From Methylacidiphilum caldifontis (lineage in GTDB: Bacteria; Verrucomicrobiota; Verrucomicrobiia; Methylacidiphilales; CAMAQI01), in assembly GCA_945877805.1 (NCBI GenBank), contig CAMCSM010000004.1:1582-65581 (forward strand): DNA of 64,000 nt. Direction: 5' to 3'. Both the position numbers and the translations under genes were made by a program. The notes below the pieces were generated by a model. It searched no databases. It saw only the letters and a list, made by a program, of their open reading frames with translations, and was not told where the DNA came from. Shown in pieces: positions 9,276 to 27,932 of the stretch. The stretch's first letter is position 1, and the number at the start of each line of letters is the position of its first letter.

Positions 9276-10244
9276 GTGAATCCAAAGCCCGTACATCATC
9301 CGGTTTTGCTGGAGGCGTTTTTGGACGCCGTCCAGCCGAAGTCCGGTGAACGATGGATCGATGGGACTTTTGGGCGCGGTGGCCATACGACAGCGCTGTT
9401 GGAGCGAGGGGTGAAAGTCTTAGCGCTTGACCAAGATGCGGAGGCAGAGGCCGCTGCGGTTTTGGTGAAGGAACGTTGGGGGGAGTCGTTTCATTTCTTC
9501 CGAGAAAATTTTCGGGAGATGAAGCGGGTGAGTGAATCGATGGGATGGGAGAAGGTGGAGGGGATTCTTTTGGATCTCGGGGTTTCTTCTCCGCAGTTCG
9601 ATCAGGCGGAACGGGGGTTTAGTTTTCGGATGGAGGGACCTTTGGATATGCGGATGGATATGCGCCAGTTTTTGACTGCCGCGCGAATCATTTCCGGAGA
9701 GTCAGAGGAGGGGCTGAGTCGGATTTTTTGGGAGCTCGGTGAGGATCGGGATTCGCGAAAGATCGCTCGGGCGATTGTGAAGGCTCGGGAGGTGACTCCG
9801 ATTGAAACGACGACGCAATTGGCAGAGTTGGTCTCGGCAACAGTGCCGTGGCGGAAGGCGAAAGGGATTCATCCGGCGACGCAGGTTTTTCAAGCACTGC
9901 GTTTGAAGGTGAATGAGGAGATTGCGGTGTTGGAGGAGGTTTTGCCGGAGGGAACTGCCTTGTTATCGGAGGAGGGGCGGTTTGCGGTGATCAGTTTTCA
10001 TTCGGGTGAGGACAAGCGAGTGAAGCGTTTTTTTCAACGGCACGCTGCGGCGGAGTTGGAGAATCCGAGAAATGGGTGGCTGGAGCCGAATCCAGAGCGT
10101 TGGTATGGGCGGGTGAAGCGATTTTTGCCGGAAGAAGCGGAAATACAGCTCAATCCGAGATCGCGAAGTGCGCGACTTCGGGTGGCCTGGAAAAGTTTAA
10201 AGGAAGAAAAAAAGAGGAAATATTATGAGCCGAAATCGAGTTAA
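9276..10244 (+). CDS. rsmH: 16S rRNA (cytosine1402-N4)-methyltransferase
   Basis: HHPVLL...DGTFGRGGHT...LLDLGVSSPQFD...RGFSF...ISFHSGEDKRVK...NPRSRSARLR are RsmH/MraW hallmark motifs. GTG start. Confidence 0.9.
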   Translation: MNPKPVHHPVLLEAFLDAVQPKSGERWIDGTFGRGGHTTALLERGVKVLALDQDAEAEAAAVLVKERWGESFHFFRENFREMKRVSESMGWEKVEGILLDLGVSSPQFDQAERGFSFRMEGPLDMRMDMRQFLTAARIISGESEEGLSRIFWELGEDRDSRKIARAIVKAREVTPIETTTQLAELVSATVPWRKAKGIHPATQVFQALRLKVNEEIAVLEEVLPEGTALLSEEGRFAVISFHSGEDKRVKRFFQRHAAAELENPRNGWLEPNPERWYGRVKRFLPEEAEIQLNPRSRSARLRVAWKSLKEEKKRKYYEPKSS

Positions 10245-10578
10245 AAGCAGTCAATCACTTCATTGGGCGACCGTGCTTTTTTGGGTCGTGCTGGTGGGGA
10301 TGATCGCCTCGCTCGGAGTCAGTTATCTTGTGTTGAAGAATCGGATTATTCGGATTGCTGAAGAATCGCGAAAACAGGAGGTGGAGTTGATGAGATGGAA
10401 GGATCGTAATGCTCAGTTGCAAGCGGCGATTCAAACACTTCGTTCTCCGAAGGAGTTAGAGAAAAAAATTTCTGGGATGGGATTAGTGCGGGTATCGGAG
10501 TTGCAATGGATTCGGATGGATAATACGCCGGAGACCAAATTAGTTCGTGGGATGAATTTTGACGGAAGGGAGCCATAA
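10225..10578 (+). CDS. ftsL: FtsL-like cell-division protein
   Basis: 117 aa with a single TM helix (ATVLFWVVLVGMIASLGVSYLVL) followed by a coiled-coil-like segment. It occupies the rsmH-ftsI position typical of ftsL. Confidence 0.65.
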   Translation: MSRNRVKSSQSLHWATVLFWVVLVGMIASLGVSYLVLKNRIIRIAEESRKQEVELMRWKDRNAQLQAAIQTLRSPKELEKKISGMGLVRVSELQWIRMDNTPETKLVRGMNFDGREP

Positions 10579-10582
10579 TCCC

Positions 10583-12286: not shown

Positions 12287-13752
12287 AGCAATCGCAACTT
12301 CACTCTTTATTTCCTGAAGCGATTTTTAAAGGAGAGCTGCACGGAGAGATCCGGGGCTTGAGCTATGACTCGCGTCGTGTCCGATCAGGAGATCTCTTTT
12401 TTGCGTGGAAAGGGGATAAATCGGATGGGCATCAATATTTGCTTCAAGCGATCGAAAAAGGGGCGGTGGGGGTTGTCGTGGAGAAGATTTCTGCAGCGTT
12501 ACCTCCGCAGTTTTTACAAATTGAGGTCAAACGGGTGCGTGAAAGCCTTGCTCGGGTTGCCTCGGTTTTTCATCACGATCCGAGTCAGAAATTGGCGTTG
12601 ATTGGAGTGACCGGAACGAATGGAAAGACGACCACGGCTTATTTAACGAAACATCTTCTTCAATCGAGCGGATGGAATTCTGGGCTGATCGGAACGATCC
12701 GTTATGAAATTGGCGACCGTATCATTCCTTCGACGCGAACGACTCCCGAAGGATCGGATTTGCAGGATCTGTTTTCTCAGATGGTGAAAGAGGGGGCACG
12801 GGCCTCGGTGATGGAGGTCTCCTCTCATGCGTTAGATCAAGGACGTGTGGCGGGAACGAAGTTTCAAGTCGTTGTTTATACAAATCTCACTCAAGATCAT
12901 CTTGATTATCATGGATCGATGGAGAGTTATTTTCAGGCGAAACTGAGTCTATTTACGGGATTGGAATCCGGATCGAGTGCGGTGATCAATTTGGATGATC
13001 CGCGGGCGATGAAAGTGATCGAATCGCTTCCTGCGAATGTGACTCCGATTACCGTGAGTGTTGAGGAGCATCCCGAAGCGACGCTTTTGGCGCGCAAGGT
13101 CGTTTGTCATACGGGCGGAACAGAGTTTGAGTTAGTCTATCAAGGGGCCACTTTTGCGATTTCAACTCCTTTGATCGGGATGTTCAATGTGGCCAATACG
13201 CTTTGTGCGATGGCCGCTGTTTTAGCTTTAGGGATTTCAACAGAAACGATGATCGATCATTTGCAGACCATTCCTCAAGTTCCCGGTCGTTTGGAAAAAA
13301 TCATGCGTCAGGATGGATTAACGGCGGTGGTTGATTATGCGCATACGGAAGATGCGTTGAGAAAAACGCTGATGACCCTTCGGGATTTGAATCCAAGAAA
13401 ATTAGTCGTGGTGATTGGATGTGGGGGGAATCGTGATGCCTCGAAGCGTCCGAAGATGGCGCGTGCGGCGGTAGAGCTTGCGGATCTTGCTATTTTTACA
13501 TCCGATAATCCTCGCAATGAATCGGCCGCTACGATTTTAGATCATATGGAGGCGGGGGTGATGGGGGCGAGGAACTATCTTAAAATTGAAGATCGAAAAT
13601 CAGCCATTTTAAAGGCTTTAAATGAAGCACAGTCGAGCGATCTCGTTTGTATTGCCGGTAAAGGACATGAGGTGACGCAGGAGATTGGAGGACGATATCT
13701 GGCCTTTGATGACTGCGAAGTGGTTCGTGAGTGTATGGGGGTTCTTGTATGA
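12283..13752 (+). CDS. murE: UDP-MurNAc-L-Ala-D-Glu:meso-DAP ligase
   Basis: [12 protein letters not shown]-loop, Mur-ligase middle and C-terminal domains, and a DNPR motif (TSDNPRNE) typical of DAP-adding MurE. Confidence 0.9.
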   Translation: MKQSQLHSLFPEAIFKGELHGEIRGLSYDSRRVRSGDLFFAWKGDKSDGHQYLLQAIEKGAVGVVVEKISAALPPQFLQIEVKRVRESLARVASVFHHDPSQKLALIGVTGTNGKTTTAYLTKHLLQSSGWNSGLIGTIRYEIGDRIIPSTRTTPEGSDLQDLFSQMVKEGARASVMEVSSHALDQGRVAGTKFQVVVYTNLTQDHLDYHGSMESYFQAKLSLFTGLESGSSAVINLDDPRAMKVIESLPANVTPITVSVEEHPEATLLARKVVCHTGGTEFELVYQGATFAISTPLIGMFNVANTLCAMAAVLALGISTETMIDHLQTIPQVPGRLEKIMRQDGLTAVVDYAHTEDALRKTLMTLRDLNPRKLVVVIGCGGNRDASKRPKMARAAVELADLAIFTSDNPRNESAATILDHMEAGVMGARNYLKIEDRKSAILKALNEAQSSDLVCIAGKGHEVTQEIGGRYLAFDDCEVVRECMGVLV

Positions 13753-15131
13753 GAGAGGTCACCGTTCGTGATTTAGCCGAGGCAATGGGGGGAACCGTTC
13801 TTCGGGGAAGTGGATCGATTTCACGACTTCATACCGATACGCGGACGATTCGTGCAGGAGATTGTTTCGTTGCTTTGTCTGGAGAGCATTTTGATGGGCA
13901 TCAGTATGTGATCGCAAGCGCTCAGGGGGGGGCTGTTGCGGCCGTCGTTGCAAAGGTACCTGAAGGGGAATTACCTGAGTCGTTTGGATTGATTCTGGTG
14001 GAGGATCCGCTGCAAGCGTTGCAGCGTTATGCCCATTTTTATCGCAAAAGTCTTCAGGTTCGTGTCGTCGGAATCACGGGGAGCAGTGGGAAGACGAGTA
14101 CGAAAGAATTTATCAAAGCGGTGCTTTCACAGAAGTTTAAGACTGGGGCGACTGTTGCAAATTTAAATAATCATATTGGGGTTCCGTTAACGCTTTTATC
14201 TTTGGAGCCAGAAACGGAGTGGGCGGTCGTGGAGATGGGGATGAATCACCCTGGGGAAATTGAGCCGTTAGCAAGGATGAGTGCCCCTGATTTTGGGGTG
14301 ATCACTCGGGTGGGTCAGGCGCATATCGAAAATTTTAAAAATATTCAAGGGATTGCTCAGGAGAAGTCGGAGTTGTTACGGGCATTGAAATCGACTGGAA
14401 AAGCCTTTATTCCCGCAGAGGATTGCTTTTGTTCTTATCTCAGTGGACGTACAGAGGCTCCGATTGTTTATGTCGGAGAGTCGAACTCCTCTCGTTGGAA
14501 AGCAAAAGAGATTCAAGTGACGGCACAAGGGTTGGAGTTTTTGCTGGAGCATAACGGAAGCTCTATTGCGGTTCGACTTCCCCTTTGGAATCGAGTGATG
14601 ATTCAAAACGCTCTTTTAGCTGCCGCGGTGGGATTTGAGGCAGGGGTTTCCTTGGAGCAAATTGCGATGGGGCTTCAACAGGTTGAACTGCCGGGACAAC
14701 GGATGAAGGTTTATCGTCAAGATGGAGCGATCTGGATTAATGATGCTTACAATGCGAATCCGGAGTCAATGGAGTCCGCAGTGAATACATTAATGGAAAT
14801 TCCATTTGATGGGGTGCGCGTTGCGGTGTTGGGGAGCATGGGAGAGCTTGGGGGACAGGCTGAGATGTTGCATCGGGAGATCGGCTCTTATGCGGCACGC
14901 CATGGAGTGAGTCAGGTCGTTGCCGTAGGTCCGATGGCTGATTTGATTGCTGAAGGGGTCCGTCTGGTAACTGACTCAAAGACGGAGGTTCTCACGGCTT
15001 TGGATGCTGCGGAGTCGATTGAAATTTTAGAACGCTCCGATCTCAAGCGAGCGGTGTTGGTGAAGGGGTCTCGATTTATGAAGCTCGAAAAAGTTGTTGA
15101 GCATTTCACGGGACAAGGGGGGGGGCACTAA
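13749..15131 (+). CDS. murF: UDP-MurNAc-tripeptide:D-Ala-D-Ala ligase
   Basis: GITGSSGKTSTKE P-loop, NNHIGVPLTLL and DAYNANP motifs. The ATGA start overlaps the murE stop. Confidence 0.9.
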   Translation: MREVTVRDLAEAMGGTVLRGSGSISRLHTDTRTIRAGDCFVALSGEHFDGHQYVIASAQGGAVAAVVAKVPEGELPESFGLILVEDPLQALQRYAHFYRKSLQVRVVGITGSSGKTSTKEFIKAVLSQKFKTGATVANLNNHIGVPLTLLSLEPETEWAVVEMGMNHPGEIEPLARMSAPDFGVITRVGQAHIENFKNIQGIAQEKSELLRALKSTGKAFIPAEDCFCSYLSGRTEAPIVYVGESNSSRWKAKEIQVTAQGLEFLLEHNGSSIAVRLPLWNRVMIQNALLAAAVGFEAGVSLEQIAMGLQQVELPGQRMKVYRQDGAIWINDAYNANPESMESAVNTLMEIPFDGVRVAVLGSMGELGGQAEMLHREIGSYAARHGVSQVVAVGPMADLIAEGVRLVTDSKTEVLTALDAAESIEILERSDLKRAVLVKGSRFMKLEKVVEHFTGQGGGH

Positions 15132-15132
15132 T

Positions 15133-16233
15133 ATGTTTTATTATCTTCATCAATGGGCGAGCGATCTCGGATTTTTGAACGTCTTTCGGTATGTGACCTT
15201 TCGTGCGATTGGGGCGGCATTAACCGCATTAATTCTTTGTTTGTGGCTAGGGCCAATGACGATTCGCTTGCTCACGCGTTTGAAATTAGGCCAGCCGTTA
15301 CGAGGGAAAGAGGAGGTGCATAAACTTGCGGATCTTCATAGTGCTAAAAAAGGGACTCCGACGATGGGAGGGCTGCTCATTTTATTGTCGGTGACCGTAT
15401 CGACATTGCTTTGGGCACGCCTCGATCAAACGGTACTTTGGCTTGCGCTGATCGGAATGCTTCTTTTAGGGATGGTCGGATTTGCGGATGACTATTTGAA
15501 GGTTGCCAAGAAAAAGTCAGATGGAATTCCTGGTCGAATTAAATTGGCTGGTCAGTTTCTCGTTGCCGTTGGGGTTGCGGCTGTATTAATGGGAAGTCCG
15601 ATTCATCGCGACTCTTGCGAAATGATTTTTGTCCCCTTTATGAAGAGCCCTCTGCTTACCCAGATTGGCTGGTGGGTGATTCCTTTCTTTGCGATCGTCG
15701 TGATGGGGACCTCCAATGCAGTAAATTTGACCGATGGTTTAGATGGGTTGGCCGCAGGGTGTACCGTGAGTGTGATGTTGGTCTTTGCAGTCTTTTCTTA
15801 TCTTTCGGGGCATCTCGATCATGCAAAGTATCTCTATCTTCCGCATACCCCAGGCGCAGGGGAGCTCGCTGTTTTTTGTGCGGCGATGGCGGGGGCCGCG
15901 CTTGGATTTCTTTGGTATAATTGTCATCCGGCGCAAGTGTTCATGGGAGATACGGGCTCACTTGCGATTGGGGGAGGACTTGGCGTTGTCGCCATTTGTA
16001 TTAACCAAGAGTTACTTTTGATCATTGCCGGCGGGGTTTTTGTGATGGAGGCCGGATCGGTGTTGCTGCAGGTCGCCTCCTTTAAACTGACCGGGAAACG
16101 AATCTTTGCGATGGCGCCGATCCATCATCATTTTGAACTTAAGGGTTGGAAAGAGACAATGGTCGTGACCCGTTTCTGGATCTTGAGTTTCCTTTTTGCG
16201 GTGATTGCAATTTCAACACTGAAATTAAGATAA
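15133..16233 (+). CDS. mraY: Phospho-MurNAc-pentapeptide translocase
   Basis: Polytopic membrane protein with KKGTPTMGG, NAVNLTDGLDGLA, MGDTGSLAIGG and APIHHHFE motifs. The ATG at 15133 lies directly after the murF stop. Confidence 0.92.
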   Translation: MFYYLHQWASDLGFLNVFRYVTFRAIGAALTALILCLWLGPMTIRLLTRLKLGQPLRGKEEVHKLADLHSAKKGTPTMGGLLILLSVTVSTLLWARLDQTVLWLALIGMLLLGMVGFADDYLKVAKKKSDGIPGRIKLAGQFLVAVGVAAVLMGSPIHRDSCEMIFVPFMKSPLLTQIGWWVIPFFAIVVMGTSNAVNLTDGLDGLAAGCTVSVMLVFAVFSYLSGHLDHAKYLYLPHTPGAGELAVFCAAMAGAALGFLWYNCHPAQVFMGDTGSLAIGGGLGVVAICINQELLLIIAGGVFVMEAGSVLLQVASFKLTGKRIFAMAPIHHHFELKGWKETMVVTRFWILSFLFAVIAISTLKLR

Positions 16234-16234
16234 C

Positions 16235-17563
16235 ATGAATATACAAGGTCAACATCTTCTGATTTTGGGGCTCGGCGTGAGCGGCTTTGCGGCCGCCCGT
16301 CTTGCTCGTGAACTTGGAGCTCATGTGACGGTGTGTGATGAAGCGATGCGTCCGACGATTCGCGATAAAGGTCTGACGCTCGAAAAAGAGGGGATCACGA
16401 TTCATTTAGGGGGCAATTTAATAATGCCCGCTTGTGACCTTGTGATCGTGAGTCCGGGGATTGATTTACAGTCCGATTTTGCAAAGAGTGTGATTCCTTT
16501 AGGAGTTCCTATCATTGGGGAGTTAGAGTTTGCCTCCTCTTTCTGTAAGCTCCCGATGATTGCGATTACAGGAACGAATGGAAAGACGACGACGACGGAG
16601 TTAATTTCTGCGGCTCTGATCAAGGCAGGCAAAAAAACGGAGGCCGTCGGCAATATCGGGAAAGCCCTTTCGATTGTGGCAAAGAATTCATGCGACTTTG
16701 ATTGCTTAGTGATTGAGGTGAGCTCTTTTCAGTTGGAGACGATTCGAGAGTTTTCTCCGCATATTGCGTTGCATTTGAACTTAACTCCCGATCACTTGGA
16801 TCGTTACGAATCGATGAGTGATTACGGTCGCGCCAAAGAGCGTATTTTTGAGAATCAGAAATCGAGCGACTTTGCGGTGGTCAATTCAAATTTAAGCCTT
16901 CAACCCTTTAAGGCTAAAAAGATAACTTTTAGTGGGGTTGATTCAAAAGCTGATTATCGATTTGAAAATGGAGTCCTCTTCGCTGGTTCTGAGCGCCTCA
17001 TGAGCATGAGTGAATCGCAGCTTCTGGGGATGCATAATGTGGAGAATATTTTAGCCACGCTTGCGACTACCGATCTGATGGGGGCCGATCGCAAGTTAGT
17101 TATTGAATCGATTTGTGAGTATCGTCCTAAAGCGCATCGATGCGAGAGGGTGGGAGAGTTTGAGGGAGTTCTTTATATCAATGATTCCAAAGGGACGAAT
17201 GCCGATGCCGTTGAAAAGGCCTTAAGTTCTTTGAGTCGTCCTGTGATTTTGATCGCGGGAGGAAAAGATAAGGGGCTTTCCTTTACTGAATTGCGCACGC
17301 CGATTTCTCAAAAAGTGAAACATGCGGTTCTCATCGGCGAGACACAAGATCAAATTGCTCGTGAATGGGATCAAGTGGTTCCGCTAGAAAAAGCGGCTTC
17401 GCTTCGTGAGGCCGTGGAGCTCGCTCGTCGTGCCGCGAGTCATGGCGATATTATTTTACTTTCCCCTGGATGTTCGAGTTTCGACATGTTTCGAAGCTAC
17501 GAAGATCGAGGAGATCAATTTCGTCAAGAGGTCTTGGCGATTCATCAATCCAAACAAACCTAA
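16235..17563 (+). CDS. murD: UDP-MurNAc-L-Ala:D-Glu ligase
   Basis: N-terminal Rossmann-like GLGVSG, the [11 protein letters not shown]-loop and Mur-ligase C-terminal motifs. Confidence 0.9.
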
Positions 17564-17580
17564 CCGACTGGAGTAAATAT

Positions 17581-18438
17581 ATGGAAAACGAAAATCAACA
17601 ACAACAAGGTTCGTCCAATGGTGGCGGACTCAAACTGATGACGGTCTTTATCGTCGTCCTTGCCCTTCACGTTCTCGTCATTGGTGGCGTGAGCGCTTAC
17701 AGCCTTCTTAAGGGGAACACAGAGCCCGTGGCTCTTGAGGAAAACAATGCAGAAAAACAAGAGGCAACCCCGGCAGCCGCAGAGACCCCTGCATTAGAAA
17801 CAACGGCGCCTGTCGTGGCTGAAAATAGTGGAACCTCATCGGTGATCGCCCCAGAAGCGACTCCGACAGTGGCTCCTGTGATCACCTCACCTGAGCATTC
17901 TCTCACAACAGCGCCGATTGCTTCGGCTCCTGTCGTGGAGGCAGCTCCTAAACATGAGATGAGCTCGAATTCGAGTTATCATGTCGTTAAGGGAGATACC
18001 TTGAGCAAAATTGCTCGAATGCACGGAATGAAAGTTGCGGATCTCAAGGCCTTAAATGGAATGAAATCTGACAATCTAAAGATTGGACAGGAAATGAAAG
18101 TCCAAAGCGGAAACGCAGTGGTTTCCTCTCCTGTTGCTTCGAGTGTTAAGAGCGAGGTTGCTAGTTCAACTCCCGCTCCTGTTGCTGCAAAAGCGACGAC
18201 GACCGCAAGTTATGTCGTTGGAAAGGGAGATACATTAACCAAGATTGCAAAGCAATATAACACCACTCCTTCCGCAATTATGGCAGCAAACAAGCTTGCC
18301 GATGCGCGTAAATTAAAGATTGGAATGAAACTAAGCATCCCTTCGCAAACACGTCAGCAAGTCAGTGAGCAACAAGTGCCGGCTTCGACTTTGGAGAAAT
18401 CCTCAGGAACAAGCGCTGATTTTGCGATGGCAAAATAA
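17581..18438 (+). CDS. Bitopic membrane protein with two C-terminal LysM domains
   Basis: The ATG at 17581 is preceded by GGAG. The protein has a TM helix ([22 protein letters not shown]), an Ala/Pro/Thr-rich linker and two LysM repeats ([17 protein letters not shown]...LKIGQEMKV and [17 protein letters not shown]...[10 protein letters not shown]). Confidence 0.8.
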
Positions 18439-18516
18439 TTTTTTCGAAGAAAAAATTATGAATTTATGAAAACACTATTTCTTAAGACTTTGAAAATTTA
18501 AAATAGCAAAAAAATT

Positions 18517-19665
18517 ATGATACAACGGAATGTAGGATATCTTCTGCTGGTGATGACGCTTGCGCTCATCTCCGTGGGAGTGATCATGCTGTTGAGCACG
18601 AGTGGCCGTCTGGCCATGGATGTTCATGCGGATCTCTACGCTCCGTTGCGCAAACAGATGGTTTGGCTCCTTTTGGGCTCGATCGTTTGCATCGCTGTCT
18701 CTCGTTTGGATTATCATTGGATCTTGCAGCACTCTTGGATCTGGGTTGCTTCATCAGCGTTGTTGATGGTGATGTGCCTCGTTCCTCATATTGGCAAAAA
18801 AGCCAAAGGAGCGGCTCGCTGGATCGAGGTCGGTGGGTTTACGCTCCAACCGTCTGAACTCGGGAAGGTTGCTTTTATCTGTTTTCTTGCCTGGTGGCTG
18901 GGACAGAATCAAAGGCGCATTCACGAGTTCGGGCGGGGGGTAGCGGTTCCTGTTGCGGTGTTCGGACTTTTTGCGGTCATCCTTGCGAAATTTCAACATG
19001 ATTTAGGATATACCGTTTTGATGGGAACGATCCTTTTCAGTATGTTGGTGTGTGCCGGAATTCGTTGGTATTATTTGGCGCCGATTCCCTTTTTGGGGAT
19101 TGGCGGGATCCTTGGAATTGCTTGGCTGATGCCGGAACGTCAAGGACGTCTGCTCGCTTTTATGGATATTGAGAAATATAAGCAAGGGGATGGCTGGCAA
19201 GTTTATCAAGCTTTAGTGGCTTTAGGATCAGGGGGAACAGAGGGGTTGGGATTGGGGAATAGCCGCCAAAAAATGTTTTGGCTTCCGGAAGCGCATACCG
19301 ATTTTGTTTTCCCGATTTTAGGCGAGGAACTCGGAGTCTGGGTGGCGCTTTTAGTCGTATTTTGTTTTTTAATCATGACTCTTTGTAGCGGATGGATCTC
19401 GATGAATGCTCCCGATGCGACGGGGGTATTACTGGGGATCGGAATCAGTACCCTTTTTGCCGTTCAATCTCTGATGAATTTATCGGTTGTCACAGGACTG
19501 ATGCCGAACAAAGGAGTTCCGTTGCCCTTTATTAGTTATGGGGGCTCCAGTTTGATGATGTGGATGGTGTGCATTGGAATTCTTTTTAATTTACAAAGAC
19601 AAGGGGTCCATGAATCGGATCAACGTGCTCCAGTAACCGTTAAAAAGGCAACGATTCGATTATGA
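18517..19665 (+). CDS. ftsW: SEDS-family peptidoglycan polymerase FtsW
   Basis: Ten-TM SEDS pattern with LQPSELGK, PEAHTDFVF and GVPLPFISYGGSS motifs. It sits between murD and murG in the dcw cluster. Confidence 0.9.
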   Translation: MIQRNVGYLLLVMTLALISVGVIMLLSTSGRLAMDVHADLYAPLRKQMVWLLLGSIVCIAVSRLDYHWILQHSWIWVASSALLMVMCLVPHIGKKAKGAARWIEVGGFTLQPSELGKVAFICFLAWWLGQNQRRIHEFGRGVAVPVAVFGLFAVILAKFQHDLGYTVLMGTILFSMLVCAGIRWYYLAPIPFLGIGGILGIAWLMPERQGRLLAFMDIEKYKQGDGWQVYQALVALGSGGTEGLGLGNSRQKMFWLPEAHTDFVFPILGEELGVWVALLVVFCFLIMTLCSGWISMNAPDATGVLLGIGISTLFAVQSLMNLSVVTGLMPNKGVPLPFISYGGSSLMMWMVCIGILFNLQRQGVHESDQRAPVTVKKATIRL

Positions 19666-20756
19666 AAGCTCTTCGTGTTGCGATTGCTTGTGGGGGAACG
19701 GGGGGGCATTTATTTCCGGGGATTGCGATTGCGCAAACGCTGCATCAACGTGGACATGAGGTCATGCTTTTAGTCTCTGCAAAACAGATTGATGCCGTGG
19801 CCCTGAAGGACTATCCAGAATTTCGAGCCGAGGTTATTCCGGGAATGGGATGGACCGGAATCAATCCACAAGCGATCCGATTTCTTTATAAAATTCTACA
19901 GGCCAGAGGGGTCTGCCGCGGGTTATTTAAAAGCTTTAAACCGGATGCAGTTCTGGGGATGGGAGGCTTTACGAGCGCCGTTCCCTTGCTGGTCGGAAGA
20001 CGGATGAAAAAGGCAACCTATCTTCATGAATCGAATGCCATTCCGGGCCGTGTCACAAAGCTTCTTGCTAAACAGGTCTCTCGGGTATTTCTCGGTTTTG
20101 ATGCCTGTGACTCTTACTTAGAAGAGGCCAATACTGTGGTGACCGGAACTCCTTTGAGAAAAGATCTCATCAAAATTCATCGTGACGAGGCCTTGGCTCA
20201 GCTCGGACTGAATCCCCATTTAAAAACTATTTTAGTGATGGGGGGAAGCCAAGGAGCCCGCGGAGTCAATGAAATGGTTTTGAAGTCGATCCCCCTTTGG
20301 GAACGGGAAAAAGATCAGTGGCAATTCATTCATCTTACGGGAGAGATGGATGCGACGATTGTCGATATTAACTATCGTCGCTGTCGTTTAAATGCCTATG
20401 TCAAAGCCTTTTCAACGAATATGGGGCTCTTATTAAGTGCCTCGGATTTAGTGATCAGCCGCTCCGGAGCGAGCAGTTTAACCGAGATTTCAGCTTTTGG
20501 ATTGCCGAGTATCTTAATTCCTTTTCCTGCGGCGATCGATGATCATCAGACCTTAAATGCTCGGGTTTTCTCGATGGTCGGAGCGGCTTACTTAGAGCCT
20601 CAATCGAAGCTCACTCCCCAAGGATTAGATCAAAAAGTATCGGAAATTTTACATCAAAGCGAGCATCTGGAATCGATGAAAGTTGCGGCGCATTCGCTCT
20701 TTGTCCCTGATGCGGCAGAGCGGATTGCCCTTGAAATCGAGAGGGGGGCCGCATGA
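19662..20756 (+). CDS. murG: UDP-GlcNAc:lipid I GlcNAc transferase
   Basis: GGTGGHLFPGIAIA N-terminal motif and the C-terminal GGSQGA...SRSGASSLTE pattern. Confidence 0.9.
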   Translation: MKALRVAIACGGTGGHLFPGIAIAQTLHQRGHEVMLLVSAKQIDAVALKDYPEFRAEVIPGMGWTGINPQAIRFLYKILQARGVCRGLFKSFKPDAVLGMGGFTSAVPLLVGRRMKKATYLHESNAIPGRVTKLLAKQVSRVFLGFDACDSYLEEANTVVTGTPLRKDLIKIHRDEALAQLGLNPHLKTILVMGGSQGARGVNEMVLKSIPLWEREKDQWQFIHLTGEMDATIVDINYRRCRLNAYVKAFSTNMGLLLSASDLVISRSGASSLTEISAFGLPSILIPFPAAIDDHQTLNARVFSMVGAAYLEPQSKLTPQGLDQKVSEILHQSEHLESMKVAAHSLFVPDAAERIALEIERGAA

Positions 20757-23035
20757 CCACGATTCGTGAGATTCTCGCTTTGGGGCAGGCACGGATTCAT
20801 CTCTTAGGAGTTGCGGGGAGTGGGATGAGTGGGCTTGCGCGGATCCTGCTTCAGATGGGGTACCAAGTTTCCGGCTCCGATCTTCAACGTTCCCGTGGAA
20901 TCGAAAAGTTAATTGATATGGGATTAAAGTTTTCTCAAGGACATGAGAAAGATGAACTCGATTCCGTGAATCTTGTGGTCTATTCCTCTGCGATTCGAGA
21001 GGATAACCCCGTTCGTCGTCAAGCGGGCGAGCGAGCGATTGCGTGCGTTCGGCGTGCTGCATGTCTAGCGGTTTTATCGGAGCAAAAGCAACCGTTAGTC
21101 GTTGCGGGAATGCATGGAAAAACAACGACCTCCTCGATGCTTGCTTATGTTTTGCGTTCTGCGGGATGGCGTTGCGCTCATTATATTGGCGCTGAAATTC
21201 CGATTCTCGGGGAAAGTGCTTCGATTGATGATGGAGAGCATTTTGTGATTGAGGCGGATGAAAGCGATGGGACGATCACGCTCTTTAAACCAAAGCATTC
21301 GTTACTCCTGAATATTGAAGAGGAGCATCTCGATCATTACGGGAATTTAGAGGCGATTTTGAAAACATTTCGGGAGTTCATTTCGAATACCACGGGAAAA
21401 GTCGTTTATTGTGCCGATGATAAAAATACCTTATTGCTGTGTTCACATCATCCGACGGCTGTCAGTTACGGCTTTGGAAGTCAGTCGGATTACCGGGCGA
21501 TCGAGGTCCGTAGTCAAAATTTCTCCTCGCAATTTCAAATTCAAAATCGCGGACAAATTTTAGGAACCATTGTTCTTCAAATTCCCGGAATGCAAAATAT
21601 CAGCAATGCCCTCGGGGTAGTTGCGCTTGCGACGGAGCTGGGGGTTCCTTTCGATTCCATTACCCAGGCGCTCCAGGAGTTTCGAGGGGCGACTCGACGA
21701 TTTGAAGTCAAGTTTAGGAATCCAGAGTTTATGATCGTTGATGATTACGCCCATCATCCGACAGAGATTAAAGCGACCCTCGCTGCGGCAAAGGCCGGAG
21801 GATGGAATCGTGTGATCGCTTTATTTCAGCCGCATCGTTACACACGAACACAGCTTTTATTTGATGAATTCGTGAACGCCTTTCAAGATGCTGATTTAGT
21901 TTTTATTACCGATATCTATGCTGCGAGCGAAGTTCCGATTGAGAACGTCAACGGAAAAGGTTTGGCAGAGGCAATTTCAAAATTAGGAAAGGCAGAAAAA
22001 GTAGCGTTTGAGTCGAATCTTCAAACATTACGGAAACGGGTTTCGCGTGAGATGCAACCGGGAGATCTTCTGTTAACGCTCGGAGCAGGAAACATCCATC
22101 AAGTGGCTCTCTCCCTCGCTCAAGAGTTAAATTGGTTTAGCGAGATGAGGAAGCTCATCAGCTCCGATTCTAGATTGCTGCGTCAAGAGCCGATGAGCAA
22201 GCATACTTCCATGAGAATTGGCGGTCCGGCACAGTTTTGGTTTGAACCGGCGAATGAGCCGGATCTTGTTTCCGTTGTTCGTTATGCCTATGAGCATTCG
22301 ATTCCCTTAATGGTCATTGGGCGGGGGTCAAATCTTCTTGTTCGTGATGGCGGGATCTCGGGAATTTGTGTTCATTTAGGTCACCCTTATTTTAGCGAAA
22401 TCAAAGTTGAAGGAGAGAATTTGAGAGTGGGTGCCGGGGCTCGGTTAAAGGCGATTACCACAGAGGCGCGTCGTGCTCAGATCGGGGGACTGGAGTATCT
22501 TGAGGGAATTCCCGGGAATCTTGGCGGGGCCCTTCGGATGAATGCCGGAGCGATGCAGGGATGGACTTTGGATAATATTGTTGAGGTAAAGATGCTCGAT
22601 CTCCAAGGGAATTGGCATCATCAGTCACGTCAAGAGATCGAAGTGGCCTATCGCTCTGTTCCGCTATTTAAAACCCATATTGCGGTGAGTGCTTTGGTGA
22701 GTGGAAAGGGGTCGACCTCAGAAGCAATTGAGGAACGATTAAAGCAGTTTAGCACCAAACGATGGGATTCTCAACCAGCTGCCCCGAGTGCCGGCTGCAT
22801 TTTTAAAAATCCAGCGGAATCGCCGGCGGGGAAAATTGTCGATGAACTCGGATTAAAAAATCGGCATGTGGGTAAGGCACGAGTTTCAGAGGTTCATGGA
22901 AATTTTATCGTCAATGATGGGGGGGCCACAGCTTGCGAAGTTCTTCAGTTAATTTCTGAAATTCAGGCAACGGTTAAATCCCAACGTCAGATTCAATTAG
23001 AAACAGAGGTTGTCATTTTGGGAGAGGATTTATGA
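20753..23035 (+). CDS. murC: Fused UDP-MurNAc:L-Ala ligase (MurC, N-terminal) and UDP-N-acetylenolpyruvoylglucosamine reductase (MurB, C-terminal)
   Basis: Single 760-aa frame. Residues 1 to about 465 carry MurC motifs (GVAGSGMSGLA, GMHGKTTTSSM, DDYAHHPTEI). Residues from about 475 carry MurB motifs (HTSMRIGGPA, IGRGSNLLVRDGG, GCIFKNP). Confidence 0.9.
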   Translation: MTTIREILALGQARIHLLGVAGSGMSGLARILLQMGYQVSGSDLQRSRGIEKLIDMGLKFSQGHEKDELDSVNLVVYSSAIREDNPVRRQAGERAIACVRRAACLAVLSEQKQPLVVAGMHGKTTTSSMLAYVLRSAGWRCAHYIGAEIPILGESASIDDGEHFVIEADESDGTITLFKPKHSLLLNIEEEHLDHYGNLEAILKTFREFISNTTGKVVYCADDKNTLLLCSHHPTAVSYGFGSQSDYRAIEVRSQNFSSQFQIQNRGQILGTIVLQIPGMQNISNALGVVALATELGVPFDSITQALQEFRGATRRFEVKFRNPEFMIVDDYAHHPTEIKATLAAAKAGGWNRVIALFQPHRYTRTQLLFDEFVNAFQDADLVFITDIYAASEVPIENVNGKGLAEAISKLGKAEKVAFESNLQTLRKRVSREMQPGDLLLTLGAGNIHQVALSLAQELNWFSEMRKLISSDSRLLRQEPMSKHTSMRIGGPAQFWFEPANEPDLVSVVRYAYEHSIPLMVIGRGSNLLVRDGGISGICVHLGHPYFSEIKVEGENLRVGAGARLKAITTEARRAQIGGLEYLEGIPGNLGGALRMNAGAMQGWTLDNIVEVKMLDLQGNWHHQSRQEIEVAYRSVPLFKTHIAVSALVSGKGSTSEAIEERLKQFSTKRWDSQPAAPSAGCIFKNPAESPAGKIVDELGLKNRHVGKARVSEVHGNFIVNDGGATACEVLQLISEIQATVKSQRQIQLETEVVILGEDL

Positions 23036-23934
23036 GTTTGAAAAAAATCGCCGTATTTAAAGGGGGTCCTTCTAAAGAGCGTGAGGTTTCATTGCGGACC
23101 GGGAGCGCTATTGCGGAGGCCTTGCGTACGAAGGGATATGAGGTTGAAGAGGTTGATATCACGGGGCCTGATTTTAAGATTCCTGAAGCGACCGAATTTA
23201 TTTTTATTGCTCTGCATGGAACGTTCGGTGAAGACGGGCAGATTCAACGGCTTTTAGATCAACGAGGGATTCGTTATACCGGCTGTGGAGCCCATGCAAG
23301 TGCCTTGGCCTTTGATAAAGAAAAAAGTAAAGAGTGCTTCAAGATTTACCAAGTGCCGACGCCTGCAGGAGAGTCTTTAAGAGAGGGAGAAAAGACCACG
23401 CTTAATGTCCCATTAGTTTTCAAGCCTGCGTGTGAAGGATCCAGTATTGGATTAGAGATGGTTCATCGTGTCGAGGATATTGAGCCAGCCTTTCGTCGCG
23501 CCTGTCAGCATGGAACGATCATCCTTGCGGAAAAAATGATCCAAGGACGGGAGTTAACCGTGGGGATTTTAGAAGGAGAAGCCCTTCCGGTTGTTGAGAT
23601 TCGACCAAAGACAGGAACCTACGATTATCAAACCAAATATACCGCTGGCTCTTCCGAATATAGTTGCCCTGCCGCTCTTTCAGAAAAGACAACAAAGGCA
23701 GTTCAAGAGTCGGCGCGTAAAGCCTATGAGGCACTGGGGTGTGAGGTTTATGCCCGAGTCGATGTTTTAATTGATGCAGAGGAGAATCCTTGGGTGCTCG
23801 AAGTGAATACGATTCCGGGGATGACCTCGACAAGCCTTCTTCCGAAAGCAGCCAAAGCGGCGGGAATGGAATTTCCTGAATTATGCGAAAAGATTCTTTT
23901 ATTTAGCGAACAAAAATATCGGAGAAATCTATGA
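23032..23934 (+). CDS. ddl: D-alanine-D-alanine ligase
   Basis: ATP-grasp fold with HGTFGEDGQIQ, SSIG and ARVDV...EVNTIPGMT motifs. Confidence 0.9.
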   Translation: MSLKKIAVFKGGPSKEREVSLRTGSAIAEALRTKGYEVEEVDITGPDFKIPEATEFIFIALHGTFGEDGQIQRLLDQRGIRYTGCGAHASALAFDKEKSKECFKIYQVPTPAGESLREGEKTTLNVPLVFKPACEGSSIGLEMVHRVEDIEPAFRRACQHGTIILAEKMIQGRELTVGILEGEALPVVEIRPKTGTYDYQTKYTAGSSEYSCPAALSEKTTKAVQESARKAYEALGCEVYARVDVLIDAEENPWVLEVNTIPGMTSTSLLPKAAKAAGMEFPELCEKILLFSEQKYRRNL

Positions 23935-24797
23935 AAAGAACCCTTTTTGAAACCCCTAAACGTCGAGATGTTCATACCCTTTATTCAGAAACAAAAAAAA
24001 TGCACTTTCAGAAAAAGTTGCGTCAAGGATCGATCTGGGTTGTCGCTGCCATTCTCGTATTTGCTGTTTTGGGATGGCTGACGCATTGGGGGGTTCAAAA
24101 AGTGGTTCGTCATTTTGTGATGGATAACCCCCGGTATAATTTGACGGAAATTGAGGTCGAGCTTCAAGGATCACTCCAAAAACGAGATATTATTCGAGCC
24201 GCCAAAATTGAAACCGGCATGGGGCTCATGAAGATCGATCTTCGGCAAGTGCAATTGGATATCGAAAAGATGCCCTATGTCTCTGAAGCTCGAGTCATTC
24301 GACATCTCCCCAATAAGATCATGATAAGTGTTAAAGAGCGAGTTCCGATGGTTCGTTGGACCTATGCCGGAACCTCCACGCATATGAGAGAGGTTTTTAC
24401 GATTGACCGTGATGGCGTGCTGATTCGCTCGCGCTCCAATGAGCAGCAAAATCTTCCTGAGATTATCGGATTTAAATTATCGGATCCTGAGCCGGGCCAA
24501 AAGATTGAAAACAGAGAGGTTTTGGCCGCCGTTCAACTTCTTAAATATTTAGAGCGCACCGCACTCCGAGGGCTGATGAGTGTCCGATCAATCGATGTTT
24601 CTGCTCCCTATTGTTTACATGTTGTTTCAGGAGAGGGAATGGTCGCTCAATTTCGAACAACGGTGATTGATCAACAGTTAGAACGACTTGCCAAAGTCAT
24701 TGAGATTTCACGACAAAAAGAGAACCCCATTGCAACGATCGATCTGACCTTAGATCGAAATGTTCCCGTCACATTCATCAATCGCGGAGAAATTTAA
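23931..24797 (+). CDS. ftsQ: Cell-division protein FtsQ
   Basis: N-terminal TM helix followed by a POTRA-like region (YNLTEIEV...G). It occupies the ddl-ftsA position. Confidence 0.75.
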   Translation: MKRTLFETPKRRDVHTLYSETKKMHFQKKLRQGSIWVVAAILVFAVLGWLTHWGVQKVVRHFVMDNPRYNLTEIEVELQGSLQKRDIIRAAKIETGMGLMKIDLRQVQLDIEKMPYVSEARVIRHLPNKIMISVKERVPMVRWTYAGTSTHMREVFTIDRDGVLIRSRSNEQQNLPEIIGFKLSDPEPGQKIENREVLAAVQLLKYLERTALRGLMSVRSIDVSAPYCLHVVSGEGMVAQFRTTVIDQQLERLAKVIEISRQKENPIATIDLTLDRNVPVTFINRGEI

Positions 24798-24821: not shown

Positions 24822-26051
24822 ATGTTCTGGAAAAAAGAGAGAAATATCGTAGTCGCAGCAGAAATTGGAAGTTGTAAGGTCGCGGTGGCGGTCTCAGAAC
24901 TTCGTGAAGATGGATCGCTGTTTTTAATGGCGGTCGGGGAAGCCCCTTCAGGAAAGGTTCGTAAATGTGAGATCACCGACTTTCAAACTTCTCAAGATTG
25001 TCTCAAGGATGCACTTCGTGATGCTGAAGAGAAAACCGATGTTGCCATTCAAGAGCTCTATCTCGCGCTCAGTGGGGCGCATATTCGCTCCGTGAATACG
25101 CGCGTTTCGACTTCGATCGATAATGAGGGTGATGAAGTTCGCGAGTTCGATATCGAAGTCCTTCGTCAAAAGGCTCAAGATTACGCGGCCCCGGCAGAGG
25201 CGGTTTTACTTCATGATTTACTGCGTCATTACTATCTCGACGATGGATCAACGGTTCCCAACCCGGTAGGGATCTCTTCAAAGAAAGTCTTTGCCGATTA
25301 TCATCTCGTTTATGGAATGGCGACTCGACTCCAAACCACCTTGCGTTGTGTGAAAGATCTTTCGATTGATGTTCCGGGCTATGCCCTGAGCTCTTATGCA
25401 ACCGCTCAATCGGTTTTAACGCATGCGCAGAAGCAGGTGGGTTCAATCGTCATTAACTGTGGTGGGGGAGTCACGGACTACATTGCCTACGAACGCGGGG
25501 CAGTGGTTCATACCGGGGTCTTAGGAGTGGGGGGAGAGCATCTGACCAGCGATCTCTCGATTGGTCTTAAAATCTCTTTTGCAAAAGCGGAGGAGCTCAA
25601 GCGTAAGGAAGGCTCTGTTTATTTTGATCCTTCTTTAGAAAATGAAATTGCGATTCGCGATTTGAATTTTAGTGATCGGCATATCTATCGGGAGTCGATG
25701 GTGACGATCTTGGGGGCACGACAAGAGGAGATGTTTAAAATTATCCTTGAAGAGCTATCGGAGCAGGCATTCTGGTCAGAGTTTAGTGGGACCATTTATT
25801 TAACAGGGGGCGCCTCACAAATGAGAGGCCTGCTCGATTTGGCCCGAGAAATTTTTTCACATCCCGTAGAAATGGCAAAACAGAAGCCGATGGAGGGAGA
25901 TCAATCTTATTTAAACCGCCCTGATCTCGCAACGGTATTTGGGCTGCTGCAATATGCCCGTTCAGATCAAATGTATAATCCTCCCGTTCGCGGTTGGAAT
26001 CGAATGCAGCAATCGTTTCGAAAAGTTCTCAGTGTTCTTAAACTTTTGTAA
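24822..26051 (+). CDS. ftsA: Cell-division protein FtsA
   Basis: Actin/HSP70-fold motifs (VAAEIGSCKV, INCGGGVTDY, YLTGGASQMRGL) and a C-terminal amphipathic tail. It lies immediately upstream of ftsZ. Confidence 0.9.
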   Translation: MFWKKERNIVVAAEIGSCKVAVAVSELREDGSLFLMAVGEAPSGKVRKCEITDFQTSQDCLKDALRDAEEKTDVAIQELYLALSGAHIRSVNTRVSTSIDNEGDEVREFDIEVLRQKAQDYAAPAEAVLLHDLLRHYYLDDGSTVPNPVGISSKKVFADYHLVYGMATRLQTTLRCVKDLSIDVPGYALSSYATAQSVLTHAQKQVGSIVINCGGGVTDYIAYERGAVVHTGVLGVGGEHLTSDLSIGLKISFAKAEELKRKEGSVYFDPSLENEIAIRDLNFSDRHIYRESMVTILGARQEEMFKIILEELSEQAFWSEFSGTIYLTGGASQMRGLLDLAREIFSHPVEMAKQKPMEGDQSYLNRPDLATVFGLLQYARSDQMYNPPVRGWNRMQQSFRKVLSVLKLL

Positions 26052-26069
26052 GTGAAAAAAGGAGCCCCT

Positions 26070-27485
26070 ATGATCGACCTATGTGGAAAACATGATAAAG
26101 ATAATAAGAGAGCAAATGCCAAAGCCCGTTTTCGCGTTTTGGGATTAGGGCGTGGTGGAATTTCAGTTTTAGATCGATTGGTTCTCGGGGGACTCGATCA
26201 TTTGGATATGGTCGCTCTTGATACCGATGAGCAAACTTTATTAACGACCGTCCTTCAACGGCGGCTTTTGTTAGGGGAAAAAATTGCTGGGGGATTAGGT
26301 TGTTGGGGGGATGCGCAGCGGGGATATGAAATTGCTCAAGCAGAACAAGAGTCTTTAAAGCTGATTTTGGATGATTGCGATTACCTTTTAATTTCAGTTA
26401 GCTTTGGCGGTGGGACGGGGGGAGGAATTCTTCCTAAGATCCTCGAAATGGCCCAAGCGGAAAGAGTTCAGACCGTAGTCTTTGGGACCCTGCCTTACGC
26501 TTGCGAAGGAGAGAATCGTGTGGCCCTTTCGCTTGAGCAACTCCACCAGGCCCGAAATTTTGCGGATTGTGTTTTGACCTCATCTCATGAGCGACTGACT
26601 CCTTATTTTACTCGAGAGGCCAATCATCGCAAGGGGTATGAGTGGATGCACCAAATTGAGTCAAAGGTCATTTATAGTATTTTGATGCTCCTTGAGCAGC
26701 CAGGGCTTTTTCCGTTAAGTTTTGCGGACTTGAGAAGCTTATATGGAAGACTTCAAGGAAGTCTGAATAGCGAAAACTGTCTCATCGGTTATGCCGAAGG
26801 AACTCTTGGCGTTGAAAATGAGGCGTTACTCGACGATCTTTTAGAGGGACCTCTTTTAGCTGGAGAAGATGTTTGGCGAGAAATGGATCATGCCCTTCTT
26901 TCGGTGAGCGGAGGAAAAGAGCTCTCGGTTCTTGAAATTCAAGAGATTATGAGTCAAATTCAAAATCGTTTTGGCCGACCGCTTCCGGTTGCGGTCAGTG
27001 CGCATTTTGAAGGCCCTCAAGATGGTAAAATTCGTTTAACGTTGATGTTGGCAAAAACTGTTGAAACCGAAATTCCAGCACTGGTTCAAGAGCGGAAGCC
27101 GTCGATTTCGATTCCAGAAAAACGAGAGGTTGTATCGGCTCGAAGTGAAGAGTTTGAGCCCGTGATCATTCTTGAAATGCCAGAACAATTTGATGAGGCC
27201 CCTCCTTTCGTTCATTCCCCTCAGGTGCCGGTCCAAGCCGAACTCGGTCAATCGATCTCTATCGCAGAGGAATTAACCACTCCCGATTTTGCCTTTGAGA
27301 TGGGGGAAGTGCCAGAGGCTGCTGGAAAGAGTCGAAAGTCGAAGCCGAGAAAGGTCAAGCAAGAGGAGCTTTCCTTAGAGACTCCGAACCGTGGACGATT
27401 TGAGAAGGCCTCCGAAACCTTTTGGAAAGGGGAGAATCTCGATCAACCGACCTTCAAACGACGCTGCTTGTACGTTCGACTCTAA
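26070..27485 (+). CDS. ftsZ: FtsZ, divergent in its GTP-contact loops
   Basis: The ATG at 26070 lies 4 nt after AAGGAG. Tubulin/FtsZ signature GGGTGGG, LDTDEQTL (NTDAQAL-like), LPYACEGENR (KPFxFEG-like), SFADLRSL, and a C-terminal NLDQPTFKRR peptide resembling the FtsA-binding tail. Confidence 0.85.
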   Translation: MIDLCGKHDKDNKRANAKARFRVLGLGRGGISVLDRLVLGGLDHLDMVALDTDEQTLLTTVLQRRLLLGEKIAGGLGCWGDAQRGYEIAQAEQESLKLILDDCDYLLISVSFGGGTGGGILPKILEMAQAERVQTVVFGTLPYACEGENRVALSLEQLHQARNFADCVLTSSHERLTPYFTREANHRKGYEWMHQIESKVIYSILMLLEQPGLFPLSFADLRSLYGRLQGSLNSENCLIGYAEGTLGVENEALLDDLLEGPLLAGEDVWREMDHALLSVSGGKELSVLEIQEIMSQIQNRFGRPLPVAVSAHFEGPQDGKIRLTLMLAKTVETEIPALVQERKPSISIPEKREVVSARSEEFEPVIILEMPEQFDEAPPFVHSPQVPVQAELGQSISIAEELTTPDFAFEMGEVPEAAGKSRKSKPRKVKQEELSLETPNRGRFEKASETFWKGENLDQPTFKRRCLYVRL

Positions 27486-27710: not shown

Positions 27711-27932
27711 TTTGGTTCCTTCCCGTTTGAAAGGGAAAGGGATAATTGCGGAAAAATTGCACGTTCACCTTTTGTGGTTAAATGGATTACCGCTAGGTTA
27801 ATAAGTTACAGAGCGTGTCACGGACTGCACTAGGCACATTCAGTAGGGTAAACTTTTTATTTATATCGCTCGTTTTTATTTAACCGATCGTCTATTTTTA
27901 ATTTTGCTCGATCTGATTAGTTTCTTGTGTTT

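Follow-up and report, generated by a model that had tools for sequence, protein, structure and literature searches.

Treadmilling of FtsZ, which draws on the hydrolysis of GTP in a composite active site, is held to organise how the septal wall is made, and N207, D209, G71, N165 and D186 (Escherichia coli numbering) are regarded as conserved across species. The 64-kb stretch of bacterial DNA analysed here (the window) carries, at 26070..27485 on the + strand, an ftsZ in which several of these residues are altered at once. The locus raises the question of whether such a protein can still be the FtsZ by which its host divides and, if so, with what kind of nucleotide site. Judging from the sequence and the predicted structure, we consider it fairly probable that the protein is a functional division FtsZ whose nucleotide site has been rebuilt and not lost, and that it would bind guanine nucleotide and polymerise, with altered and probably slower GTP turnover.

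The reading frame encodes a real ftsZ, the orthologous division FtsZ of a Verrucomicrobiota lineage that is uncultured and related to Methylacidiphilales. Its coding sequence of 471 aa plus stop was taken from the list of open reading frames (ORFs) and recognised by PF00091, TIGR00065, matches to PDB entries and AlphaFold2/Foldseek. PF00091, the Tubulin/FtsZ GTPase domain, scored 77.6 bits (E = 2e-21), above its gathering score of 33. The significant PDB sequence matches found with HMMER were all FtsZ, with Aquifex 2r6r at the top (2.6e-30). From an alignment of 79 family sequences, AlphaFold2 produced a model that reached a predicted local distance difference test score (pLDDT) mostly >90 over residues 21-330 and a predicted TM-score of 0.71, with residues 336-420 disordered. 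The top 50 Foldseek matches in the PDB were likewise all FtsZ (target-normalised TM 0.72-0.86, E down to 1e-29), at an identity of only 20-24%. A preliminary description of this DNA had named the gene as the division FtsZ of the division and cell wall (dcw) cluster; this identification held, as the gene stands last in the cluster after ftsQ-ftsA and has both the FtsZ fold and FtsZ matches in the PDB.

BtubA/B or another bacterial tubulin was ruled out as an identity, since the significant PDB sequence matches and the top 50 fold matches are FtsZ. We also rejected an FtsZl protein. FtsZl1 and FtsZl2 resemble the window protein as divergent members of the FtsZ-tubulin superfamily, but its best sequence and structure matches are bona fide FtsZ, and it has an FtsZ C-terminal fold, an FtsA-type tail and a dcw position.

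Residues of the GTP-site loops

Exchanges are numbered after E. coli K-12 FtsZ translated from NC_000913.3 (Ec); the numbers of Staphylococcus aureus FtsZ (Sa) are Ec+1. The window protein was aligned by HMMER with solved FtsZs and by MAFFT with E. coli FtsZ and 120 homologs. Both alignments bore out the claim that several GTP-contact and catalytic loops hold non-canonical residues, and also the earlier readings of T1 and T4. The T1 loop (residues 25-33; 26142..26168, +) reads GLGRGGISV against GVGGGGGNA in E. coli, with G20 replaced by Arg, G23 by Ile and N24 by Ser and with the GxGxxG glycines retained. T2 (residues 51-53; 26220..26228, +) reads DTD, in which Asp replaces N43 and D45 is retained. 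In the tubulin-signature region of T4 (residues 113-119; 26406..26426, +), GGGTGGG stands for GGGTGTG, a change of T110 to Gly.

Two further loops were read correctly as strings, yet are less abnormal than had been described. T3 (residues 75-85; 26292..26324, +) is GLGCWGDAQRG instead of GLGAGANPEVG and contains the exchanges A70C and G71W, whereas its A72G and N73D are common in otherwise canonical FtsZs. T5 (residues 141-147; 26490..26510, +) is LPYACEG instead of KPFNFEG, and its differences are ordinary FtsZ variation: Leu at 133 is the majority state, the 'FEG' context also varies, and P134, E138 and G139 are retained, as is R142 just downstream.

The string SSHERL, which had been assigned to T7, belongs to T6 (residues 171-176; 26580..26597, +). 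It aligns with IPNDKL of E. coli (163-168; IPNDKLL being 163-169) and replaces N165 by His and D166 by Glu. The true T7 synergy loop with the start of helix H8 (residues 212-222; 26703..26735, +) reads GLFPLSFADLR against GLMNVDFADVR (204-214). Of the synergy-loop triad N207, D209 and D212 (defined in PMC6528577), the window protein has P215, S217 and D220 in these places and thus retains only D212; F210, A211 and R214 are retained as well. The substitution of Asn and Asp residues that activate hydrolysis was therefore correctly anticipated as N207P and D209S, with the wrong residues named and with the key residue D212 still in place. The preliminary description had also allowed that a proper alignment might shift its motifs and bring the canonical residues back; the T7 label did move, and N207 and D209 are still not present. 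Two changes that it did not list are N43D in T2 and His194 on helix H7 (26649..26651, +), at the base-contact position Ec186, which is Asp or Asn in canonical FtsZ.

Altogether, ten hallmark residues are altered (G20R, N24S, N43D, A70C, G71W, T110G, N165H, D/N186H, N207P and D209S). Retained are the T1 glycines, D45, Q47, T108, G109, P134, E138, R142, the aromatic stacking residue F182 (as Tyr), G204, F210, D212 and R214. Of 18 hallmark positions, 8 are kept in the window protein and 16-18 in canonical-like representatives; this comparison set was chosen by N207, D209, D212 and GGGTG[ST], which are at 100% there by construction, the other positions being independent. Two candidate changes were discarded. 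A loss of a guanine contact by D187Q was rejected because Ec187 varies in canonical FtsZ (D/E/R/Q) and the conserved base contact is Ec186. A charge swap, in which N43D in T2 would compensate D209S in T7, showed no association among 146 representatives (Fisher p = 0.21, in tests that ignore phylogeny).

In filament structures of S. aureus FtsZ, N44 and D46 of T2 hold Mg2+ waters, G72 of T3 and D210 and D213 of T7 hold the catalytic water, and R143 is arginine-finger-like; assembly is lost in each of the single mutants D46A, N208L, D210N and D213N (PMC8936486). By this map, the window protein retains D45, Q47, R142 and D212 and is altered at N43, G71, N207 and D209, so that the two faces which make up the active site are both affected.

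We propose the following mechanism. Retaining the FtsZ fold of two domains and the two elements of the longitudinal interface, the protein would most likely form membrane-tethered head-to-tail filaments at the division site. A core for phosphate and ribose would persist in the GxGxxG of T1, the G-G-G-T-G of T4, D45, Q47, E138 and R142, together with D212 as the main catalytic residue of T7. The replacements would have affected the catalytic helpers (N207P, D209S), the putative Mg2+ and gamma-phosphate sensors (N43D, A70C, G71W, N24S, G20R) and the guanine contacts (N165H, D/N186H). GTP hydrolysis would then be slower or of modified geometry, with Ser217 in place of Asp as the water ligand. Altered nucleotide binding or turnover had been predicted earlier from the loop changes, and this seems a reasonable expectation.

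A lineage-wide motif set and its rate of change

An exhaustive HMMER search of 1.84 billion representatives gave 8,977 FtsZ-like clusters, and over the best 150 of them the scores fell smoothly from 617 to ~126 bits towards canonical FtsZ. At least 115 relatives (~120 homologs) carry the shared derived states of the window FtsZ. The non-canonical loops had been presented as a trait of this one FtsZ; the residues are real, but they are common to these relatives and not peculiar to the gene. We defined the Methylacidiphilales-type fast-evolving lineage operationally by T1 G-L-G-[QRH]-x-G, T2 D-x-D, T3 G-L-G-C-x-G-D, T7 [QP]-L-S-F-A-D-x-R and the tail RGRFE…GENLD-PTF-RR. The corresponding states of the window protein are GLGRGG, DTD, GLGCWGD, PLSFADLR and RGRFEK…GENLDQPTFKRR.

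Few members of the family are named, namely Methylacidiphilales metagenome-assembled genomes (MAGs) and the isolate Verrucomicrobium sp. GAS474. The window's own clade comprises only 3 species-level genomes, and the FtsZs of its closest orthologs (L002, L003) are 81-91% identical within the clade and only ~35% identical to the named Methylacidiphilales. The database titles of L002 (CAMCYL010000003.1, 'Akkermansia muciniphila') and L003 (CAMAQI010000195.1, 'Methylacidiphilum sp. Phi') look unreliable, resembling loose nearest-reference names, and were not relied on.

Across the family, T1 is GLGQTGAA, T2 is D-x-D with Asp at Ec43 in 98%, T3 is GLGC-GD with Cys at position 70 in 93%, and T7 is GLIQLSFADVR in 96 of 115 members. 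T4 is mostly AG[SA]TGVA, and a single member of 115 matches the tubulin signature. The base contacts are the pair His165/His186 in 74 of 115, and N/N in the 12 most canonical-like members. Among 79 aligned members, Ec P134, E138 (a ribose contact), G204, F210, D212 and R214 are invariant (E146, D220 and R222 of the window protein for E138, D212 and R214). Window residues G25, G27, G30, D53, T116, G117 and R150, that is the T1 glycines, D45, T108, G109 and R142, are conserved in >=90% of the family. The window clade departs from the family majority in its near-canonical T4 (GGGTGGG), in Arg for Gln in T1 (GLGR-GIS) and in Pro for Gln at 207; once the shared change of T7 had occurred, erosion thus struck different elements of the pocket in different subclades.

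Scores for the FtsZ equivalog TIGR00065 were 472 bits for E. coli, 328 for a canonical-like representative, 272-288 for mainstream Verrucomicrobiota, 205-210 for an intermediate 'DTD' clade and 112-152 for the window family. Three family members (P0047, P0095 and P0265), including two named Methylacidiphilales members (P0047, P0095), are annotated 'hypothetical protein' at NCBI, which is likely due to scores of 112-152 bits against a cutoff of 295.

Compared with the 81%-identical ortholog of L002, the window ftsZ has a ratio of nonsynonymous to synonymous substitution rates (dN/dS) of 0.057 overall, 0.032 in the GTPase domain, 0.019 in the tail and 0.218 in the linker; these values are approximate, as dS is near saturation. 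Outside the linker the ratio is ~0.03-0.06, and the neighbouring dcw genes have ratios of 0.027-0.103. The altered loops are a lineage-wide trait under purifying selection, not decay. The identity of the GTPase domain is nevertheless lower than that of the C-terminal domain at each distance (0.87 vs 0.95 to L002, 0.72 vs 0.85 to L004, 0.36 vs 0.40 within the family), opposite to canonical-like FtsZs (0.44 vs 0.33).

The core of the window FtsZ is 24% identical to that of E. coli FtsZ, and its FtsA is 31% identical to E. coli FtsA. Comparisons across phyla usually run the opposite way, with FtsZ identity above that of FtsA. For FtsA/FtsZ pairs on the same contig, the median identity was 58% for FtsA and 36% for the FtsZ core. 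The acceleration is therefore confined to FtsZ and still continues inside the clade.

We also compared the family with the mainstream verrucomicrobial FtsZ, for which a profile matched at least 5,450 proteins at E ≤ 1e-30, the named ones being Verrucomicrobiales, Verrucomicrobiae and Chthoniobacterales; 120 were sampled. In these 120 sequences the pocket is fully canonical, with G20, N24, N43, G71, GGGTGSG, N165 and D186 each at ≥97%. Their T7 reads GLIRIGMDDL: N207 is Arg, Gln or His, D209 is Gly in 100%, a new Asp stands at 211 and R214 is lost, so that 120 of 120 are without N207 and D209. This suggests that the acidic pair has been relocated (Asp211 beside D212) in an otherwise canonical FtsZ, a shift of which we found no description in the literature searched. 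The T7 data come from MAG sequences labelled Verrucomicrobiales (P0184, P0227, P0418 and others), not from Verrucomicrobium spinosum itself. A non-canonical T7 is thus common to the whole phylum sample, and the further remodelling on the pocket side is specific to the window family. Both types share a long branch, the dcw location, the extended tail and a T7 without N207 and D209. They differ in that the mainstream type combines a canonical pocket with G209 and D211, and the window type combines a remodelled pocket with S209 and a retained FAD-R.

A neighbour-joining tree (crude, with no support values) ran from canonical to mainstream FtsZ, to the 'DTD' clade and to the window family, a clade nested in the verrucomicrobial FtsZs. 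The window clade had the longest path (root-to-tip 0.85 vs 0.59). The shared tail module …GRF-…-DLD-PTF-RR argues for orthology throughout. The window protein is like the canonical FtsZs of E. coli, S. aureus, Bacillus subtilis and Methanocaldococcus jannaschii in its fold, domain order, linker with C-terminal peptide and genomic position, and it differs from them in its ten hallmark changes and its low core identity to E. coli.

Verrucomicrobial FtsZ has been described as highly divergent yet essential (Yee et al., 2007, PMC1845146; 2025 V. spinosum study, PMC12283558), and V. spinosum, a species of Verrucomicrobiales, cannot do without ftsZ (PMC12283558). For Methylacidiphilum infernorum, accelerated evolution of ftsZ and not of ftsA was reported qualitatively ('data not shown'), as was the loss of FtsEX and MinCDE (Hou et al., 2008, PMC2474590), and its FtsZ was found only by an alternative query (Rivas-Marín et al., 2016, PMC5147048). 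Both the contrast of fast ftsZ with slow ftsA and the poor detectability are reproduced in the window family. The Methylacidiphilales-type FtsZ of M. infernorum, likened here by its published description, shares with the window FtsZ the phylum-level lineage, the fast ftsZ with a slow ftsA, the hard detection and the dcw location. The window clade differs from its Methylacidiphilales-type relatives in its ~35% identity and its own T1, T4 and T7 variants (GLGR-GIS, GGGTGGG and Pro207). No residue-level account of the T1-T7 state of a Methylacidiphilales-type FtsZ was found in the literature searched. A divergent lineage with a fast ftsZ has thus been known since 2008; the residue-level pattern of the active site may be worth an experiment.

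The Planctomycetota-Verrucomicrobiota-Chlamydiota (PVC) superphylum holds another FtsZ with altered functional residues, that of Lentisphaera araneosa, compared here by description only; its non-functional state is reportedly a finding of Pilhofer et al. from 2008, whereas the window protein is under clear purifying selection. The L. araneosa homolog is also called non-functional in reviewer comments to Hou et al. (PMC2474590).

C-terminal tail, gene start and surroundings

An acidic, Pro-rich linker of ~135 aa had been described. Its composition was confirmed (19% D+E, 12% K+R, 12% Pro), but its length is ~100 aa, followed by a conserved tail of ~40 aa. The disordered, fast-evolving linker covers residues 331-430 (27060..27359, +; pLDDT <50, identity to L002 0.48). 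The tail, residues 431-471 (27360..27482, +), reads QEEL…RGRFEK…GENLDQPTFKRR and is 97% identical to that of L002. Its columns Q431 to R464 are invariant in the family, with the pattern Q…RGRFE…T…G..LD.P…R in 79 aligned members. As had been recognised, the C-terminal peptide NLDQPTFKRR, which follows the disordered linker, is of the FtsA or FtsA/ZipA-binding type and aligns with DIPAFLRKQ of E. coli (LDIPAFLRKQ). Its presumed docking partner is the FtsA whose gene directly precedes ftsZ.

The conserved stretch at the C-terminus far exceeds the classical peptide in length, with a module QEEL-x-[FL]E…RGRFE[KN] ahead of GENLD-PTF-RR. This extended module is recognisable in mainstream verrucomicrobial FtsZs (57 of 144 representatives) and, judging from its conservation, may be a second partner-binding site. 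The C-terminal extension of V. spinosum FtsZ has been reported to be essential.

The ftsZ ORF is intact and ends at 27485, with possible starts at 26052 (GTG) and 26070 (ATG) on the + strand. The Shine-Dalgarno sequence AAGGAG (26059..26064, +), read directly from the sequence 5 nt 5' of the ATG, and the beginning of close homologs with MIDLRGK support the start at 26070. The N-terminal motif MI[ED][FL] (residues 1-4, 26070-26081) is near-invariant, in 100 of 120 family members, and a start with MIE… is also the consensus in mainstream verrucomicrobial FtsZs. The N-terminal extension of FtsZ is normally variable, so this conservation is unusual.

Just upstream lie ftsA (24822..26051, +; TIGR01174 267.4 bits, cutoff 175.85), whose product presumably binds the C-terminal peptide and serves as membrane tether, and ftsQ (23931..24797, +; POTRA_1 and FtsQ_DivIB_C domains). 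The remaining dcw genes were identified by NCBIfam scans at 9276..23934 (+). The cluster is complete in the window, and its order on the + strand is rsmH, an ftsI-like penicillin-binding protein gene, murE, murF, mraY, murD, a LysM-domain gene, ftsW, murG, a murC-murB fusion, ddl, ftsQ, ftsA and ftsZ, with ftsZ at the 3' end directly after ftsQ-ftsA. Synteny with the window extends from murD to ftsZ in L002 and L004 and from mraY to ftsZ in L006. The three syntenic related genomes include the cultured isolate GAS474 (LT629781.1), whose family member, 29% identical to the window FtsZ, occupies the same dcw position; the ftsQ-ftsA-ftsZ slot is occupied in four genomes in total.

The fused murC and murB form a single 760-aa ORF (20753-23035, +), with TIGR01082 murC at residues 14-452 and the murB models at residues 467-759, and the fusion is also found in L002, L004 and L006. 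It has been given as a peculiarity of V. spinosum (PMC12283558). The LysM-domain gene (17470-18438, +; 1235-2260 in L006) lies between murD (or mraY) and ftsW, is kept in related genomes and weakly resembles DipM, ActS and cell-wall hydrolase or activator proteins of the MepM type. Directly 3' of ftsZ, at 27927-29948 (+), a PAS-containing hybrid histidine kinase is encoded that most closely matches cell-cycle kinases of the CckA type (403 bits for NF046020, well under the cutoff); a CckA-like kinase was absent from the position downstream of ftsZ in L002, L004 and L006. Over the whole window the GC skew is positive nearly throughout (cumulative 0.19 to 4.44) and almost all large ORFs are on the + strand. 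Skew and strand bias fit a leading-strand chromosomal segment, and no sign of mobile DNA was seen in the window.

A probable rebuilt site and its alternatives

Several findings weigh against a working, rebuilt site. PF12327 (FtsZ_C) scored 18.6 bits, below its gathering score of 27, although the FtsZ_C fold is confidently predicted and can be superposed on complete structures of FtsZ. At 132.6 bits the protein also falls far below the TIGR00065 cutoff of 295.2, while the FtsA alongside easily exceeds its own equivalog cutoff (267 vs 176 bits). T4 misses the tubulin signature [SAG]GGTG[SAT]G (as quoted in PMC1845146) at one position, the sixth, which is Gly. Conservation of the GTPase domain has fallen below that of the C-terminal domain, whereas in canonical FtsZ the order is the opposite, and the near-saturation of dS loosens the estimate of selection. 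The base-contact positions vary inside the window clade (165 is H/L/Y and 186 is H/Q/N), which looks like relaxed constraint. Furthermore, the S. aureus mutants N208L and D210N and the role of G72 would lead one to expect severe impairment of the window FtsZ unless other changes compensate.

A rival reading is a hydrolysis-dead scaffold, which would polymerise and recruit the divisome via FtsA after GTP hydrolysis has effectively been lost, its dynamics no longer being driven by GTP-powered treadmilling. In such a case, sister clades with T4 AG[SA]TGVA may even do without GTP binding. The idea draws on the absence of N207 and D209 and on Trp at G71: S. aureus FtsZ is inactivated by single mutations at the matching positions, and equivalent mutations are stated to inactivate E. 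coli FtsZ in vivo (PMC8936486; bioRxiv 10.1101/677963). It also draws on the rarity of the tubulin signature in the family, on the relatively weaker constraint on the N-domain and on the trend of the PVC group towards FtsZ loss (PMC5147048, PMC12283558). However, E138, D212, R214, T108, G109 and D45 are invariant or nearly so in the family, and a new-form T7 kept identical in most members, with a GTPase-domain dN/dS of ~0.03, fits a working site better; Ser at 209 could still hydrogen-bond water. We favour a working, re-tuned site over a dead one because of the conservation of D212, of T7 in its new form and of the contacts to phosphate and ribose, and regard the scaffold as unlikely.

A bolder possibility, to which we give somewhat less credence still, is that the whole lineage, GAS474 included and Methylacidiphilum probably so, has just one FtsZ for division, in which the canonical GTPase apparatus was taken apart or re-specified. 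Septation would then proceed without normal treadmilling driven by GTP hydrolysis, and the lineage would be a living intermediate towards the FtsZ-less Planctomycetota and Chlamydiota. The basis for this is the lack of N207 and D209, the His/His guanine contacts and the loss of the tubulin signature in 114 of 115 members.

The His/His pair could instead mean a changed nucleotide preference, with His at N165 and D/N186 re-tuning base recognition to another nucleotide or to pH-dependent binding. The two His occur together in most of the family, as opposed to N/N in the most canonical-like members, and the aromatic stacking residue and the ribose and phosphate contacts are retained. On the other hand, the variation of both positions in the window clade speaks against a precise new recognition, and no FtsZ with non-guanine specificity was found in literature searches. 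We consider such a change of preference improbable.

It is more improbable again that the window copy is a specialised paralog with another role while a canonical ftsZ elsewhere serves division. The visible DNA is 64 kb of a genome, and M. infernorum is reported to carry an extra FtsZ-superfamily gene of the FtsZl1 family (Makarova and Koonin, 2010, PMC2875224). Yet the gene occupies the canonical ftsQ-ftsA-ftsZ slot in each of the four genomes and has the FtsA-type tail of mainstream verrucomicrobial FtsZ. Standard queries had recovered no canonical FtsZ from the M. infernorum proteome (PMC5147048), and Hou et al. describe a single accelerated ftsZ (PMC2474590). A broad FtsZ HMM and E. coli FtsZ found no second FtsZ/tubulin homolog among all six-frame ORFs of the window. 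The window FtsZ is probably the only FtsZ of its genome.

A pseudogene decaying towards loss, as in Planctomycetota and Chlamydiota, might be suspected from the low identity to E. coli and the few hallmark residues kept, but it is scarcely credible, being effectively refuted by dN/dS values of 0.03-0.06 and by a C-domain 95% and a tail 97% identical to those of the 81%-identical ortholog, besides an intact ORF, a good Shine-Dalgarno sequence and a confident AlphaFold2 model.

The functional division FtsZ with a rebuilt nucleotide site, which we prefer, amounts to a natural experiment: it is under purifying selection in a host that makes peptidoglycan and has the full dcw cluster, and a related isolate is in culture. 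Surveys of FtsZ presence and absence may miscount such genomes, as these proteins score under the curated cutoff and bear 'hypothetical protein' labels. The FtsZ of this family could inform the route of the PVC group to FtsZ-independent division, and its nucleotide turnover would reveal how much of the canonical active site is required.

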